Origin: a virus
Taxonomy: Duplodnaviria > Caudoviricetes
DNA length: 48,392 nucleotides
IMG/VR virus record: IMGVR_UViG_3300035042_000091
Coordinates: 1 to 48,392 of that record
Strand: one strand, 5' to 3'
Shown piece after piece: positions 34,383 through 42,076 of the stretch. A program made the translations under genes and the position numbers. Position 1 is the first letter of the stretch. Every line of letters starts with the position of its first letter. The notes beneath the pieces are model-generated. The model had not been told where the DNA came from. It did not search any database and was given only the letters and a program-made list of their open reading frames with translations.

Positions 34383-35309
34383 ATGTCGATAAAATACAAC
34401 ATCAGAGGTGATTTTGTGAGTAATAAGCTACTAAATGATAACAATGGGGAAAATAGCAACAGATTAAAAAAGTTATTTATAGTTATTTTGACAGTGCTCT
34501 TTCCTTTTATAGGTATATTTTTCATTTTTAAATCAGGGTATTTTAATAAAAAAGGAAAAACAGCAGCAACAATTTGGTTAGGAGTTATCCTTTTAGGTTT
34601 ATTTTTTTCACCTGGTCAGGAACAAAACATTGCCAGTAATTCAAATCAAGCAAAGCAATCCGAAGAAGTTGATCAAGAAAATAATGAAATTAACTCAGAA
34701 GAGCAATCATTATTAAATGAAATTTTGGAGGGTGATAATGAAATGACTAAAAAAGATAAAGCAAATTATAAAGCAATAAGAGATTTCATTGATAATAATA
34801 AAAGTTTAGGTAAATTTACTTATTTTGAAAAGAAAGAGCCGTGGATGCATGGCGATAGATATTCAGTTTCAACAAAAGAAGACACTTTTTTGTTTTATTT
34901 ATATAATGAAGAAAATAAAGTTGTTAGTGTGAATGTAAAAGATCAGAATGGTAATATACAAAATATTTACAGAGAGGAAGTTCCAAATCTTCCTGATAAC
35001 TTTAAAAGAAAAGCCACTGAAGAAGTGCCTGAATATATAATAATAGACCAGTTTGACTTAATGTCTGGAGGAAGGCATGGAGATATATTGATTAAATCTT
35101 TTTCAAAAGAAACCCCTTTAGATAAAAGAGAAAAGGTTATTAAAAAGATAATAGAAAAAGAGAACTTTACACAAGCTGATTTATATTGTACTCGAGAAGC
35201 GTTTGAAGCTAATATGAACTCCAGTTATAGCGAATCTCATCCAAACGCTTTAGAAAATGGTTACTTAGGAAGTGTAAGAGATAATAAATTTTCTGCTCCT
35301 TATAATTAA
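34383..35309 (+). CDS. Membrane-anchored accessory protein (start possibly GTG 34416)
   Basis: Two N-terminal hydrophobic helices, a Q/E/N linker and a soluble domain; AT-rich; has its own terminator. Confidence 0.7.
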   Translation: MSIKYNIRGDFVSNKLLNDNNGENSNRLKKLFIVILTVLFPFIGIFFIFKSGYFNKKGKTAATIWLGVILLGLFFSPGQEQNIASNSNQAKQSEEVDQENNEINSEEQSLLNEILEGDNEMTKKDKANYKAIRDFIDNNKSLGKFTYFEKKEPWMHGDRYSVSTKEDTFLFYLYNEENKVVSVNVKDQNGNIQNIYREEVPNLPDNFKRKATEEVPEYIIIDQFDLMSGGRHGDILIKSFSKETPLDKREKVIKKIIEKENFTQADLYCTREAFEANMNSSYSESHPNALENGYLGSVRDNKFSAPYN

Positions 35310-37026: not shown

Positions 37027-37053
37027 AAAAACCCCAGGCAAAAACCCGGGGTT
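37027..37053 (-). terminator. Terminator between the convergent integrase and late operon
   Basis: Minus strand AACCCCGGG-TTTTTG-CCTGGGGTT-TTT. Confidence 0.7.
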
Positions 37054-37141: not shown

Positions 37142-37588
37142 CTAAAATTGAAAATCAAATCCAAGTATTACTCCACTATTCTCTATATTAGCAGGGACCA
37201 CATTGACCCCTGTTATTATTCCAATGTTCTTTTTATTTAATATGTCATCTATCATTTGCTTTTGAGTATCAATTAAATCTTGTAATCTGTTATTAGAATC
37301 TATTAATTTTCGATTATTTTCCTCAGCTGATTTATATAATTGCCTGTATTCCTCAACATCTTTCTCTGACTGATTATATAATTTCTTATATTCAGTTACA
37401 TCGCGCTCGGCTTCTTCATATAGCTTTTTGTACTTCTGGGCAATATCATACATATCACGATAATCTTCCAGGAGCTGATCATATTCTTCCGGAGGATCTA
37501 ACTCCTGAGCATTGACATTAACAGCTATAGGCAGCAGCAAAATCATTACTATTATAATGTAGATTAATTTTTTTCTAATAGTGATCAC
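37142..37588 (-). CDS. Secreted coiled-coil lysis-cassette protein (o-spanin-like position)
   Basis: Signal peptide ending VNA-QE, 14-aa repeats, C-terminal GFDFQF; no Cys. Confidence 0.6.
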   Translation of the reverse strand: MITIRKKLIYIIIVMILLLPIAVNVNAQELDPPEEYDQLLEDYRDMYDIAQKYKKLYEEAERDVTEYKKLYNQSEKDVEEYRQLYKSAEENNRKLIDSNNRLQDLIDTQKQMIDDILNKKNIGIITGVNVVPANIENSGVILGFDFQF

Positions 37589-37926
37589 TCCCTTTGATGT
37601 TCATTTAATCGAGCCTCTAAATCCTCTGCTCTTTCCTGCCGGTCTTTTTGATTATTATTAAGTTCTTCGGCTTTTTCTTTGCGATTTTCAGCTTTCTGCT
37701 GCAGCTCCTGGTCCTTTTCTTTTCTATCATCTATATTATTTTCTACTTCATTGACAACCTCTTTTTCCTGATCGGCCTGTTTCTGGACTTGTTTGCTCGC
37801 AGTTTTATAACCACCTGCAGCTCCAACTGCTCCTAAAATACTTGCCGCCTTCCATCCAAAAATAAAAAGCACTGTCAGAACAATGACAATTCCGATTGCA
37901 TAAAGATGCCATCTTTTTAATTTCAT
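37585..37926 (-). CDS. i-spanin-like protein
   Basis: MKLKRWH start, N-terminal TM segment and long coiled coil; overlaps the next gene. Confidence 0.55.
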   Translation of the reverse strand: MKLKRWHLYAIGIVIVLTVLFIFGWKAASILGAVGAAGGYKTASKQVQKQADQEKEVVNEVENNIDDRKEKDQELQQKAENRKEKAEELNNNQKDRQERAEDLEARLNEHQRE

Positions 37927-37927
37927 A

Positions 37928-38170
37928 TTATCCAACCTTTCTTTTAATAAAAGCTCTAATAGCATCGCGGCCACCAGTTAAAACAACTCCAAAGCTTAAT
38001 AAATATGTGATTGTTCTGCTGTCTAAATCCTGTCTGATATACCCCGCCACAGCCATACTTACACAAACAGCGGCTATCAAGTAAGTAGCAGTAAACTCAG
38101 CCCAGTCTGGAATGCCATTGTCATTAGAGTCTTCTCTTAAGTTAACTTCATTAACTTCTTTTTCTGGCAA
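37928..38170 (-). CDS. Putative holin
   Basis: 80 aa with two hydrophobic segments and a basic C-terminus; follows the endolysin. Confidence 0.6.
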   Translation of the reverse strand: MPEKEVNEVNLREDSNDNGIPDWAEFTATYLIAAVCVSMAVAGYIRQDLDSRTITYLLSFGVVLTGGRDAIRAFIKRKVG

Positions 38171-38175
38171 CTTAA

Positions 38176-38694
38176 TTACCTCCTTATAATCTCTATCCTT
38201 TTATTAACCCAACCACGGATAAACGTTTTAAATTTGTCGCTTTTCTCAGCTAGGTTAATATAATGCATAATTTGATAACCATTCAATAAATTAAATAAAC
38301 TTATAGGTTTGCCGCAATGATTGACAGCTTTTAAAGTGTTTGGGCCAATGACTCCATCAACTGCAATTTGATTATCAAAAAGTAAATTATATGACTTCTG
38401 CAAGTTTCTATTAGCTCTTCCGGGCCCCATATTAACTGCCTGATCAAACATTTCTTTTGCTATATCCCTGTTTTTAATTTTATTATACTTCTGATCAAGC
38501 CAAAATTCATGATAATAAATATCTCTAGCCTGATGCAGCTTTAAATCTTTCATGTCGCCTTCATAACCATTTCGCCTGGCTACTGCTTCTGTAATACCAA
38601 AGTTAGTCGCTCCCCCGGGATCATCTTTATGATTGACATAACCGCCCTCAATTTCCATTACTTCTTCAAAAGCTTCCTTAAAAATATTATCCAT
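38176..38694 (-). CDS. Endolysin, GH108 lysozyme with PG-binding domain
   Basis: EGGYVNH.DDPGGATNFGIT, FD.AVN.G, DGVIGP.T and F.RGW..R motifs. Confidence 0.93.
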   Translation of the reverse strand: MDNIFKEAFEEVMEIEGGYVNHKDDPGGATNFGITEAVARRNGYEGDMKDLKLHQARDIYYHEFWLDQKYNKIKNRDIAKEMFDQAVNMGPGRANRNLQKSYNLLFDNQIAVDGVIGPNTLKAVNHCGKPISLFNLLNGYQIMHYINLAEKSDKFKTFIRGWVNKRIEIIRR

Positions 38695-39081
38695 TTAAAT
38701 CACTCCTAATTGCGCCATTGTTAAAACAAAGGTAGCTGCAGAAGATACAACAGCTATTATCCAAGCTATATTATCCATAAGCCTATCTTTAGCTTTTTTC
38801 TTTCCTGTTTCTTCAGTTTTGGATTCTTCTATTTTATCCAATCTATCTTCATGATCTTGGTATTTCTCAATAAGACCATTATATTTATCAAACTTACCAT
38901 TAAACTCAGTTAACTGTGAAGTTAAGCCCTGAATCATTTCAAAAAGCTGCTGATTAGAGTACCAATCTCCTGACATCAGTTGCTTAATTTTTCTTTCATT
39001 GTCTTTTGATCTGTCATGATTATTTTCTATCTTTTCTCTTAAGGGGCATTCGTCTATGCTGTGCCCTTTACTATCCATCAA
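38695..39081 (-). CDS. Coiled-coil protein with C-terminal TM (holin/XhlA-like position)
   Basis: Directly upstream of the endolysin; single C-terminal hydrophobic helix. Confidence 0.55.
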   Translation of the reverse strand: MMDSKGHSIDECPLREKIENNHDRSKDNERKIKQLMSGDWYSNQQLFEMIQGLTSQLTEFNGKFDKYNGLIEKYQDHEDRLDKIEESKTEETGKKKAKDRLMDNIAWIIAVVSSAATFVLTMAQLGVI

Positions 39082-39155: not shown

Positions 39156-40250
39156 TTATTCTTTTAAATCTAGTTGATTAAGTATTTCTTTATCTAGTTT
39201 ACCAATTGTTCTTTTCTTTAGATTATAACTGTTACAATGCTTTAAAATTCCTTTATAGCTTTGAACACTGGCATTTATATCATTAATATCAACCTCCCCT
39301 TCATAATAATTTTTCTGTAAATATTTCAATCTACTTTTCATTTTATTTTTAGTACTTTTCCTGAGTTTTCTGTAAGCAGGATAAGTAACATATCCACAAA
39401 AATCTATTCCTTCATTTATATTCCCCACAGTTGTTTTGTTGTTAAGTTCTAATTTTAAATAATCAGCAAGAAATATTTCTATTTCCTGCCTGATAGTATG
39501 TAATTCATTTTTGGATTTTCCTAAAATAATAAAATCATCCATATATCTAATATAATGTTTAGCCCTAAGTATATGTTTTACAAATTTATCTAAAAAATCT
39601 AAATAAATATTAGCAAACATCTGACTGGCTAGATTGCCAATAGGTATTCCAATTCCTTTTATTTTGTCCTCTTCAAAATAATGATCACCCAGATGAATAC
39701 CAAACTCACCATCATCGGTTTTGATTATCTGCCAAAGCAATCTTAAAGTATCTTTGCAATTTATTTTTCTTTTAATAATTTCAAAAAGAACTCTGTGATC
39801 TATCCGATAGAAATATTTTGCTACATCAGCTTTAAGAAAATAAGTTTCTCCTGGTTGCCTATCGAGCTTCCTCATCCAGTGCCTTAACTGATCTGCAGCA
39901 TAATGAGTCCCTTTATTTTCTCTGCAAGCACAACTATGCTCATAAAATATATTGTCGAAAATAGGGAAAATCTGTCTATATATGGCCCATTGAACTACTC
40001 GGTCCCTAAAAGGTAAAGCCATAACCAGTCTTTGCTTTGGTTCGTAAACATAAAACTGATGATATTTGCCCTGTTCATAAGTTTTGTGTATCAATTCATT
40101 CTGCAGCTGGATAAGATTGCTTTCTAACTGCCTGGTAAACTTTAAAACTTCATTTTTAAATCTTTTTTTCTTTCTTGCTTCTATATAAGCTAAATATAAA
40201 TTCTCAAAATCGTATATTTTTGGATATAAATTTCTAAATTTTTTTGGAAT
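39156..40250 (-). CDS. DGR reverse transcriptase (364 aa if started at ATT 40250)
   Basis: FRDRVVQ, GIPIGNLASQ and RYMDD motifs. The frame stays open 52 codons upstream of the track start and encodes NLYPKIYDFENLYLAY..AR. Confidence 0.95.
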   Translation of the reverse strand: MPKKFRNLYPKIYDFENLYLAYIEARKKKRFKNEVLKFTRQLESNLIQLQNELIHKTYEQGKYHQFYVYEPKQRLVMALPFRDRVVQWAIYRQIFPIFDNIFYEHSCACRENKGTHYAADQLRHWMRKLDRQPGETYFLKADVAKYFYRIDHRVLFEIIKRKINCKDTLRLLWQIIKTDDGEFGIHLGDHYFEEDKIKGIGIPIGNLASQMFANIYLDFLDKFVKHILRAKHYIRYMDDFIILGKSKNELHTIRQEIEIFLADYLKLELNNKTTVGNINEGIDFCGYVTYPAYRKLRKSTKNKMKSRLKYLQKNYYEGEVDINDINASVQSYKGILKHCNSYNLKKRTIGKLDKEILNQLDLKE

Positions 40251-40280
40251 GTTATCACCACTTTCTCTGTATTCAGGTGA

Positions 40281-40314
40281 AAAGAAAAACCCGCTCTTAT
40301 TTAGAGCAGGTTTT
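40281..40314 (-). terminator. Intrinsic terminator between TR and RT
   Basis: Minus strand AAAACCTGCTCT-AAATA-AGAGCGGGTTTT-TCTTT. Confidence 0.7.
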
Positions 40315-40493
40315 AAGGTGCCGGCCGTGACAACTTTCTATATTTCAATACTTGCTGCCTAACTGACAATTTAAATTTTTTCCTGGAGGGACAAATTTGT
40401 TTCTCAGGATGGAAGTAGGCCCCTTTATTTATGTTGCTGGCACTGGATAACAACCCAGTAGGTTGCTAACTTCTGGCCTAAAAATATAAATAG

Positions 40494-40608
40494 AGCGGAG
40501 CGGAAGCCAATGTTGTTGTTCGAGTTCGAACGCTCGTTGTTCAGGTTCAACTGAAAGACACCGGCTGTCGAGCCGTTGTTCCAGTTGCCACCACGGATCG
40601 GCAAACGC
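40494..40608 (-). repeat. DGR template repeat (TR)
   Basis: 115 bp with 26 adenines and 10 AAC codons; aligns without gaps to 41063..41177. Confidence 0.96.
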
Positions 40609-40638
40609 ATCGGCCTACTACCGAAAATTTATAAAATT

Positions 40639-40980
40639 TTATTGTTTCTTTTCTATTGTTTTCATCCAGCCGCCGATCAACTTACCTACTTCATCAAGTT
40701 TTTCGGACCAGATGCCATACTTTTTAAAAGGAAGAAATTCTAAATCTTTGGCTAATCTTATATAAGTAGTTATCAATTCTAATTGAGTATCCATTTCTCT
40801 TAATGTAGTTTTTTTATAATATTTTTTATTAGTTATGATAATTAATTTTAAAAGCTTTATCATTGCCTCTTTTATCTCTGCAGCAAAAGTATGCTTTTCG
40901 CTGCGAGGAAATTGTTTTAATGCCTGGTAACCATACTGGATCATGTCATAAGTCTTTTGATATACTATTAGATTTTCCAA
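40639..40980 (-). CDS. avd: DGR accessory variability determinant
   Basis: FPRSEK..., L..YIRLA.DL and EVGKLIGGW motifs; basic four-helix protein; TTG at 40980 after an AAGGA SD. Confidence 0.92.
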   Translation of the reverse strand: MENLIVYQKTYDMIQYGYQALKQFPRSEKHTFAAEIKEAMIKLLKLIIITNKKYYKKTTLREMDTQLELITTYIRLAKDLEFLPFKKYGIWSEKLDEVGKLIGGWMKTIEKKQ

Positions 40981-41001
40981 ATTATCATCCTTCAAGTAAT
41001 G

Positions 41002-41027
41002 TAGGGGAAGGCTATCGCCCACCCCTA
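41002..41027 (-). promoter_or_regulatory. DGR homing hairpin downstream of VR
   Basis: Minus strand TAGGGGTGGGC-GATA-GCCTTCCCCTA (GRNA loop), about 20 nt after the target stop codon. Confidence 0.75.
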
Positions 41028-41047
41028 ACAGATTTTAGAGTTCAGAT

Positions 41048-42076
41048 TTATAGAGAAACAAAAGCGGAGCGGAAGCCAATGCTGTAGCCCGAGCTCGAAC
41101 GCTCGTTGTTCAGGTGCAACTGAAAGACACCGGCTGCCGAGCCGTGGTTCCAGCGGCCACCACGGAGCGGCAAACGCTCACCGTAGTTTCTAACATAAAT
41201 ATAATCTCCGTTATATCCTGTGCCTTCCGGGAATACAGCCAAATATTTTAGTCTTTCAGGAACTGTAAAGCCAGTATCAGCGGTCATATTCTCAAAAATA
41301 TGAGAGATATATTCGCTACTTGCTTCGTCCATTACATTGTCAATTACACTATCAAGCTGTAATGTAGTGCCGTCTACATCCATATAAGCTCCGAGATCTA
41401 ACCAGCCTGTATTATCTCCAGCAGCATTACCAGTCTGAAAATCATTTTCATCATGAACCCAAATTTTACCGTCAACTAGCTTTAAGCCATCGACCCATTC
41501 ATGAACATTTCCATTTAAATCAAATATGCCTGCTAGAGTTCCATCGTGAGACCATGAAGCAGGTCCAGATCCGGTTGCTACCCTATATGTTTTGTAAGGG
41601 TCTCCACCACCATAAGTTTCTACACCTTTTTCATGCGGAGCACTTATATCCTGACCATAGTCATTGTTACCTCTGGGCTCATAACCATTTTTCCTGCACC
41701 AGAGTGCAATAGCAGCCCATTCTGCATTGGTCATAAGATGCCAGCCAGTTCCCTTAGCAAATGATGCAGCTCTCGCTGTATCAAAATTAATTGATGTTGC
41801 TGGGTCCTGATTAGGGATTGAATAAGCCCGGCTGTTCTTGATAATATTTTGATATTTTGAAATGAAAATTTCATCCTTAACCACACCGTTAACAATGAAA
41901 GCTGGATGCGGTTCGTTTGGCCAGGTGTCTACAACATCATCTAAATTAAACTTAGGCAGCCTATACATAACAGAAGGATTTCCCTGATCATCATATAGAA
42001 CTGTGTTTCTTCCTCCGGTTTGAGCTTCAACAGCTGCTCTGTAACTATCTTTTATACTAAATACAAAAGGTTCCAT
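41048..42076 (-). CDS. DGR target: Mtd-like / FGE-type C-type-lectin-fold receptor-binding protein
   Basis: HPAF, WHLMTNAEW, GIFDLNGNVHEW and RGG.W...GFR motifs; VR at the C-terminus; last tail gene. Confidence 0.9.
   Translation of the reverse strand: MEPFVFSIKDSYRAAVEAQTGGRNTVLYDDQGNPSVMYRLPKFNLDDVVDTWPNEPHPAFIVNGVVKDEIFISKYQNIIKNSRAYSIPNQDPATSINFDTARAASFAKGTGWHLMTNAEWAAIALWCRKNGYEPRGNNDYGQDISAPHEKGVETYGGGDPYKTYRVATGSGPASWSHDGTLAGIFDLNGNVHEWVDGLKLVDGKIWVHDENDFQTGNAAGDNTGWLDLGAYMDVDGTTLQLDSVIDNVMDEASSEYISHIFENMTADTGFTVPERLKYLAVFPEGTGYNGDYIYVRNYGERLPLRGGRWNHGSAAGVFQLHLNNERSSSGYSIGFRSAFVSL
41063..41177 (-). repeat. DGR variable repeat (VR)
   Basis: 11 mismatches to TR, all at TR adenines. 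Confidence 0.96.

Follow-up and report, generated by a model that had tools for sequence, protein, structure and literature searches.

How does a phage whose lysis genes encode no recognisable outer membrane lipoprotein open the outer membrane of its host? The question is raised by a virus record of 48,392 nucleotides, here called the window, whose 48.4 kb carry a serine integrase, a repressor region and a minus-strand late operon. An earlier note had described a GH108 endolysin and a holin in this DNA, followed by a coiled-coil protein with an N-terminal transmembrane (TM) segment and an overlapping gene, and had taken the last two for a spanin-like pair with a lipoprotein-free outer partner. 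All of these genes are present in the claimed order. The cassette reads on the minus strand from a 128-aa protein with a C-terminal TM segment through the endolysin and an 80-aa holin-like protein to two genes termed here ORF-I and ORF-O, which overlap by GTGA. Its features are the following:

38695-39081, minus strand: 128-aa coiled-coil protein with C-terminal TM segment, likely a holin
38176-38694, minus strand: GH108 endolysin with PG_binding_3 domain (Pfam E 1e-25 and 3e-12)
37928-38170, minus strand: 80-aa holin-like membrane protein, putative holin
37585-37926, minus strand: ORF-I, the inner partner, 113 aa from ATG
37603-37728, minus strand: three 14-residue repeats of ORF-I, residues 67-108 (starts 67, 81, 95)
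37142-37588, minus strand: ORF-O, the outer partner, 148 aa from GTG
37508-37588, minus strand: signal peptide of ORF-O predicted for SPase I from the sequence, residues 1-27, ending VNA|Q
37307-37432, minus strand: three 14-residue coiled-coil repeats of ORF-O, residues 53-94 (starts 53, 67, 81)
37145-37225, minus strand: amphipathic beta-hairpin of ORF-O, strands at about 122-130 and 139-148, with invariant Gly and terminal Phe
37030-37053, minus strand: terminator-like hairpin closing the cassette (two such hairpins in the region against 1.3 expected by chance)

The 128-aa protein is considered a likely holin because Phage_holin_4_1 proteins take its place in three relatives (L001, L009, L016). 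For the 80-aa protein, which gave no Pfam match over the cut-off and no PHROG match, the label holin rests on size, hydrophobicity and position; its gene is kept directly upstream of ORF-I and ORF-O in Halanaerobium-type relatives. No frame of the cassette encodes an ORF with a lipobox, and a scan of all frames of the window for lipoprotein signals gave two matches, both on the opposite strand and outside the cassette, so that no canonical o-spanin or u-spanin is evident; for the o-spanin this agrees with the earlier note. The same all-frame scan ruled out a hidden embedded lipoprotein gene.

This phage very likely infects a diderm Halanaerobium. Over 7.8 kb that end just above the ORF-I/ORF-O pair, the window is 92% identical to a prophage of Halanaerobium saccharolyticum, and proteins with 80-86% identity to ORF-O itself occur in H. 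saccharolyticum, H. salsuginis and one Halanaerobiales MAG. BamA was found in all five genomes with the first homologues, the closest host genomes included, and Halanaerobiales are described as having an LPS outer membrane and one BamA in the part of Antunes 2016 (PMC5007114) available to us. The diderm host that had previously been presumed thus stands. The accompanying premise, that such hosts lack the Lol pathway, is weakened. The accessible text of Witwinowski 2021 (10.1101/2021.05.31.446380) supports it in describing Lol as practically absent from Terrabacteria, while LolA and Lnt homologues are reported for Halanaerobiales in the same part of Antunes 2016. Our own test on the five genomes was split, with PF03548 in none and PF17131 in all of them, and the four loci examined adjoin membrane-transporter genes. 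The absence of Lol is a plausible reason for a lipoprotein-free design.

Upstream of the cassette the window carries a diversity-generating retroelement (DGR; 39156-42076, minus strand), in which the differences between the repeats fall at template adenines:

39156-40094, minus strand: DGR reverse transcriptase
40494-40608, minus strand: DGR template repeat
40639-41022, minus strand: DGR Avd
41063-41177, minus strand: DGR variable repeat, at the end of the 342-aa FGE-sulfatase-like target

Between the repressor region and the integrase lies a gene for a 308-aa membrane protein of no known family (34383-35309, plus strand), a position typical of an exclusion or defence gene.

ORF-O combines a predicted signal peptide, a coiled coil and a C-terminal beta-hairpin ending in Phe. 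The hydrophobic leader, the three 14-mers, the lack of Cys and the C-terminus GFDFQF had all been listed before and are all present. We take VNA|Q to be a textbook SPase I site. The repeat shows 13 identities in 28 positions at offset 14, a value equalled by none of 5000 shuffles, and short relatives lack two of the three 14-mers. The annotated GTG start is GCG in H. salsuginis, whereas an ATT at codon 4 (window 37577-37579, minus strand) is kept in all eight Halanaerobium-type loci compared, in each of them 5-8 nt behind a Shine-Dalgarno-like (SD-like) run. Because the GTG is not kept while the ATT and the SD-like run are, this rare codon may be the real start, giving a protein of 145 aa; if so, it could hold expression of ORF-O low.

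In outer membrane proteins the beta-signal is a final amphipathic strand with a terminal aromatic residue, an aromatic residue at -3 and Gly at -6. ORF-O of the window shows this pattern (GFDFQF), and so do the terminal strands of its relatives, in which polar and hydrophobic residues alternate and the last residue is F or W in 57 of 73. Among these 57, Gly occurs at -10 in 51 and at -6 in 38, and F, Y or W at -3 in 37; the other 16 relatives end in P, L or R. The conserved terminal strand that had been noticed in the single sequence is thus a feature of the family. A lipobox-like motif was found in only one of the 73 relatives. AlphaFold2 (AF2) modelled ORF-O alone as a helix (residues 34-118) with two low-confidence strands (pTM 0.35). 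The model of a fused relative, described below, likewise has two strands per chain, and a closed barrel of eight or more strands would be possible only as an oligomer. Judged from these patterns, ORF-O would probably be held in the outer membrane by an oligomeric hairpin inserted by BAM. The C-termini of P0084 and L058 (154-870, minus strand) appear to carry four strands instead of two, which is what a shared barrel built from repeated hairpins would lead one to expect. The O proteins of L059, L060, L061 and L064 carry Ala/Pro/Thr-rich low-complexity linkers of about 40 to 150 residues between signal and coil.

ORF-I has a TM segment (residues 8-24), a Gly-rich hydrophobic segment (27-40) and a coiled coil (41-110). 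Its repeats show 11 identities in 28 positions (p=0.0026) and match those of ORF-O in number. These matched repeats in the inner protein, together with fused polyproteins described below, had been missed by the earlier note. A second hydrophobic segment occurs in 16 of 73 I proteins, that of the window included, and the N-terminal TM segment of I carries positive charge on both flanks. Neither protein of the window contains Cys or gave a Pfam match over the cut-off; ORF-I showed weak matches to Rz-like PHROGs (best E 8e-4).

Among the Bacillota genomes searched, the distribution of the family follows that of the outer membrane. In a sample of 401 Bacillota genomes (99 BamA-positive, 302 BamA-negative), 17 were matched and 14 proved true members on inspection, whereas three weak matches without the family architecture, all in BamA-negative genomes, were dropped. 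The family thus occurs in 14/99 BamA-positive and 0/302 BamA-negative genomes (Fisher p 1.5e-9), or in 10/95 and 0/302 when the four starting genomes are left out (p 4e-7), in a sample of non-independent and often incomplete genomes with only a few candidates scored in each. A second profile returned the same 14 genomes and five weak matches in BamA-negative genomes; these lie in frames of 662-1262 aa and cover the coil only, and were dropped on the evidence of the match table alone. Homologues in monoderm hosts, which would have spoken against an outer membrane function, were accordingly not found in the 302 BamA-negative Bacillota. Strong matches within Halanaerobiales were restricted to 4 of 72 genomes. 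Twenty clusters of metagenomic matches were looked up. One of them (P0093) bore an organism label, that of a MAG classed as Bacteroidota, and its sequence is similar to those of family members in BamA-positive genomes of Bacillota.

More distant relatives revealed a second gene organization. A profile search of 1.84 billion representatives gave 61 matches, comprising 40 fusions (one truncated), 17 stand-alone O proteins (three truncated) and four that were discarded as unrelated (P0080, P0090, P0099, P0101). The fusions encode, in a single polyprotein, a TM segment, a coil, an internal signal peptide, a second coil and the hairpin. Fused and split forms interconvert among close relatives, L095 being split and L083 and L086 fused. 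Ten of 42 fused members match the Rz-like PHROG 739 weakly; the other family-library matches of these 42 are scattered coiled-coil ones, and no Pfam or PHROG family describes them. Searches of 50,697 GenBank phage records (INPHARED) gave no match, apart from one chance match at E 3 in a second search, and a viral scan using the distant split clade found nothing. Likewise, Foldseek returned nothing at E<=0.001 from PDB and BFVD. Sequence matches to designed coils and viral heptad repeats were rejected as coiled-coil likeness and not kinship.

The genomic neighbourhood points to lysis. We scanned 49 of 82 neighbouring ORFs, picked by size and position, from 28 of 30 loci, and found a wall hydrolase within about 2 kb in 25 of the 28, a count that includes near relatives and hence does not represent 25 independent events. 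The pair thus travels with lysis genes. Alternatively, it might be unrelated to lysis, serving superinfection exclusion or as a virion component and merely standing at the end of the late operon; three of the 28 loci have no wall hydrolase in the stored flank. Yet the pair stays with the cassette while the endolysin varies over seven families (GH108, Amidase_2, Amidase_3, Hydrolase_2, Phage_lysozyme, Glucosaminidase, Peptidase_M15), and even where a DUF5662 gene is inserted; moreover, no other gene for outer membrane lysis is evident in the window. We regard this explanation as the least probable of those considered. In several prophages of Halanaerobium, but not in the window, the DUF5662 gene (L002:2189-2671, L014, L016) separates ORF-I from the holin-like gene. 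In another set of cassettes a thioredoxin-family gene (L080:1303-1773, L088, L090) separates the endolysin from the fused gene. In one phage the O gene (L044:2504-2935) directly follows tail-region genes, and neither an I gene nor a lysis gene adjoins it in the stored flank.

Cassettes of a holin-like gene, a wall hydrolase and I/O were also detected in chromosomes (L017, L018, L019, L123-L126, with parts only in L124 and L126). No phage gene was recognised near them among ORFs of 130 aa or more in four regions of 12-15 kb, which suggests a lysis or release module kept by the host. Several of them adjoin the same LacI-family gene. Upstream of the L017 cassette lie a C39 peptidase gene and barrel-like genes (L017:639-3292) that resemble a Fap-type amyloid cluster. 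Phage-free cassettes of this kind would also suit a trans-envelope conduit or scaffold that lets out phage particles, endolysin or secreted proteins as its cargo, does not fuse the membranes and is related in use to holin/hydrolase secretion modules. This we consider very unlikely, given the spanin position of the pair in phages and the lack of a conserved cargo gene beside it. A coil-plugged barrel of two-strand protomers would in addition be too narrow for folded cargo, and programmed lysis is an equally possible use of host-kept cassettes.

A link between the two proteins came from the lengths of their coils, measured in 73 I/O pairs (61 fused, 12 split). The I coil was counted from where the N-terminal hydrophobic block ends up to the last Leu that is conserved, and the O coil from the conserved Tyr as far as the hairpin Gly that does not vary; these anchors were set by pattern and then hand-corrected. 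I coils range from 35 to 87 and O coils from 60 to 114 residues, and the two lengths are correlated with a slope of 1.06 (Spearman 0.87, n=73). The correlation holds in 46 de-duplicated pairs (rho 0.85) and in independent contrasts, for which the tree was made only with blocks lying outside the variable region (r 0.85, reached in 0/10,000 permutations), where 30 of 36 large contrasts have the same sign for both coils. In the same 46 pairs, I length is not significantly tied to the length of the linker (rho 0.26) or of the hairpin (rho 0.23). O lengths shift in heptads, with 35 of 73 in one residue class modulo 7, L086 and L095 have seven residues more in both coils than their close relatives L083 and L085, and both coils of the window clade are about 28 residues longer than those of L027. 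Length outliers are L058 (35/76) and P0072 (44/83), and the split pairs alone, which span a narrow range, show no positive trend (n=11, rho -0.53, p 0.09). Mean net charge is +2.4 for I coils and -4.3 for O coils; a charge-covariation test of the register gave one nominal signal in four (p 0.03) and is not convincing. Independent tracking of periplasm width by each coil could give a loose correlation but would explain same-size indels among close relatives less easily. We see in these data strong comparative evidence that I and O act as a length-matched pair, and the simplest reading would be that the two coils run side by side.

For a fused relative, AF2 with 44 sequences produced two long helices and the hairpin (pTM 0.52, pLDDT 79), with pLDDT 73-87 in the hairpin strands. 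Residues 26-162 of this model align to two-helix antiparallel hairpins, about 110 residues at about 2 A, and its VIA structural matches are generic helical hairpins (Z about 10). The modelled antiparallel packing is consistent with a zipper but weak as support, since a covalently linked chain favours such packing.

Taken together, we favour, with a probability of roughly 0.6, a spanin-like device in which the outer subunit is anchored by an oligomeric hairpin inserted by BAM and an antiparallel zipper pulls the two anchors together. O would be exported by Sec and cut by SPase I. BamA would insert the C-terminal hairpins of O, which would assemble into a small oligomeric barrel, while a coil of about 85 residues (about 13 nm) would stay behind in the periplasm. 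I would be anchored in the inner membrane by its N-terminus. Because the anchor of I is N-terminal and that of O is C-terminal, both would come to lie at the same end of an antiparallel bundle, as in a post-fusion state, and zippering of the two coils would draw the membranes together. Such geometry corresponds to coil collapse of the kind proposed for the lambda spanins in the part of Cahill 2017 (PMC5295617) at hand, and class I fusion proteins have likewise been proposed to pull membranes together by zippering. Where the genes are fused, cleavage by SPase I would yield these two subunits from a single chain.

The fused forms also set the limit of this reading. The two coils are separated by a single hydrophobic segment whose charge polarity is signal-like: of 61 fusions, 54 are positively charged on its N-terminal side and 57 negatively charged on its C-terminal side. 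An SD-led internal start was not found in 23 fused genes; the best internal SD energy was -5.8, against -6.8 or stronger for all 5' starts, by which internal translation was rejected, and five of the 23 have no internal ATG, GTG or TTG candidate at all. With one hydrophobic segment between them and no internal start, the coils would begin on opposite sides of the inner membrane. The I coil, cytoplasmic when made, would then reach O once the holin lesion has opened or by way of a later export step, or would act on O in the cytoplasm as a chaperone. This polyprotein topology is the reason for holding our confidence at the level given. The TM segment and coil expected of a periplasmic i-spanin are indeed present in ORF-I, as the simple reading had it, whereas the charges flanking the TM segment are ambiguous and its placement in the periplasm is challenged by the fused polyproteins.

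The topology would need no crossing step if O by itself damaged or perforated the outer membrane, with I as its cognate, membrane-tethered cytoplasmic chaperone or inhibitor that lies along the whole O coil before export. Matched coil lengths are predicted here too, the second hydrophobic segment of some I proteins, including that of the window, could return the coil to the cytoplasm, and the O gene of L044 has no adjacent I. Nevertheless, a small barrel plugged by its own coil offers no obvious lytic lesion, and O has no inner membrane anchor once its signal is cleaved. The split I proteins of other lineages resemble ordinary single-pass type II proteins, and the weak matches of fused members to the Rz-like PHROG 739 also speak against this reading. 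On balance we consider a chaperone or inhibitor unlikely.

The cleavage of O can likewise be questioned. AxA-like sites were found in 67 of 73 relatives and in 55 of 61 fusions, against 46-60% in shuffles, by a loose pattern, and some fused members have no clear site (L027, L046). An uncleaved signal would turn O into a one-chain spanin with an inner membrane signal anchor, a coil and an outer membrane hairpin, with I as an accessory regulator; an Atlas look-alike cluster, DUF6808 (PF20647), is indeed a single protein of 133 aa, a lead only at its score of 0.89. AxA-like sites are nonetheless enriched, and the window has VNA|Q. Short O coils of about 58 residues (9 nm) would be short for a periplasm, and I would still have to bind O for the lengths to match, all of which makes a one-chain device rather improbable. 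We therefore retain the two-subunit zipper as the preferred reading.

Compared with known systems, the pair is closest to lambda Rz/Rz1 as described in the consulted portions of Cahill 2017 (PMC5295617) and Kongari 2018 (PMC6139136). Both are overlapping pairs formed by the last genes of the lysis cassette, with an inner subunit of N-terminal TM segment and coiled coil and a proposed coil collapse that draws the membranes together. The I/O pair shares the cassette with endolysin and holin, and BamA is present in 14/14 family-positive genomes. In contrast to Rz1, ORF-O lacks a lipobox and Cys but has a long coil and a terminal beta-hairpin, and most of the distant I/O relatives are one polyprotein; the inner coil may start in the cytoplasm. 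As its outer subunit is not a lipoprotein, the pair does not belong to the two-component spanins as defined. T1 gp11, described in the same part of Kongari 2018 as anchored by a lipoprotein N-terminus, with a beta-rich domain in the periplasm and a TM segment at its C-terminus, resembles the fused forms in that one gene can supply both membrane anchors. The I/O chain, however, runs with the opposite polarity, has a helical body and is divided by an internal signal peptide; an N-terminal lipoprotein signal with a C-terminal TM helix was not found. An outer membrane protein acting as o-spanin is named in section 15 of Kongari 2018, as a possibility with no example given there, and the I/O family, with its putative outer membrane hairpin, fits that description.

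Among other phage and host systems, the disruptin phiKT gp28 (10.1101/515445) is also reported to disrupt the outer membrane without a spanin lipoprotein, as proposed for I/O, but is a cationic peptide, whereas ORF-O is an acidic, signal-bearing coiled-coil protein with a partner. OmpM of diderm Firmicutes, from the same kind of host, likewise places a periplasmic coiled-coil stalk on an outer membrane barrel in the part of PMC10628300 consulted. Unlike ORF-O, each OmpM chain forms a full barrel of 16 strands and carries an SLH domain, and the protein tethers the membrane; no sequence link between the two was found. By features, DUF6808 ranked third among the Atlas look-alikes of ORF-O (mostly viral, below the reliable range of the Atlas). 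No PF20647 match was listed for the window proteins or the 42 fused members, in a profile library whose inclusion of this model is unconfirmed, and no paper with the term DUF6808 was found.

Trimeric autotransporter anchors of the YadA/Hia type consist of a coiled coil followed by C-terminal strands, four per chain, that end in G-x-x-aromatic-x-aromatic, and several chains form one barrel. ORF-O shares the coil and the strands with their aromatic-ended pattern but differs in having two strands (four in P0084 and L058) and no passenger domain. The YadA_anchor Pfam family had no match in the window proteins or the 42 fused members, and the pair is not assigned to the trimeric autotransporters.

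No description of the I/O family was found in the literature searched, which covered few subscription papers or bioRxiv supplements. Lysis modules are discussed in a preprint on phages of Negativicutes (10.1101/606087), whose available text does not use the term spanin, and recent preprints on lysis cassettes describe two-component spanins in the portions available. PF28006, precomputed on six of seven ORF-I relatives, may bear on the novelty of the pair. The pair itself is real and conserved and seems not to have been described before; to judge by its genomic company, it is a module of diderm Firmicute phages that probably serves lysis. The evidence for the beta-hairpin as outer anchor, drawn from sequence patterns, is circumstantial. 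More tentatively, and with considerable doubt, the family might represent a third spanin class native to diderm Firmicutes, in which an SPase-cut polyprotein or its split descendant parks one coil in the cytoplasm and a holin-gated zipper fuses the membranes, with some hosts keeping the cassette as their own lysis or release module.

In the part of Kongari 2018 (PMC6139136) seen, all surveyed spanins use an outer membrane lipoprotein, and about 13% of the surveyed phages have no spanin. For such phages the combination of signal, coil and terminal hairpin provides a search pattern. The natural coil-length variants act as a molecular ruler, and the barrel, if real, would be a BAM substrate with only two strands per chain. 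The papers found do not deal with phage exit from diderm Terrabacteria, which reportedly lack most lipoprotein traffic to the outer membrane; the I/O family is a concrete, small and clonable candidate for this exit.
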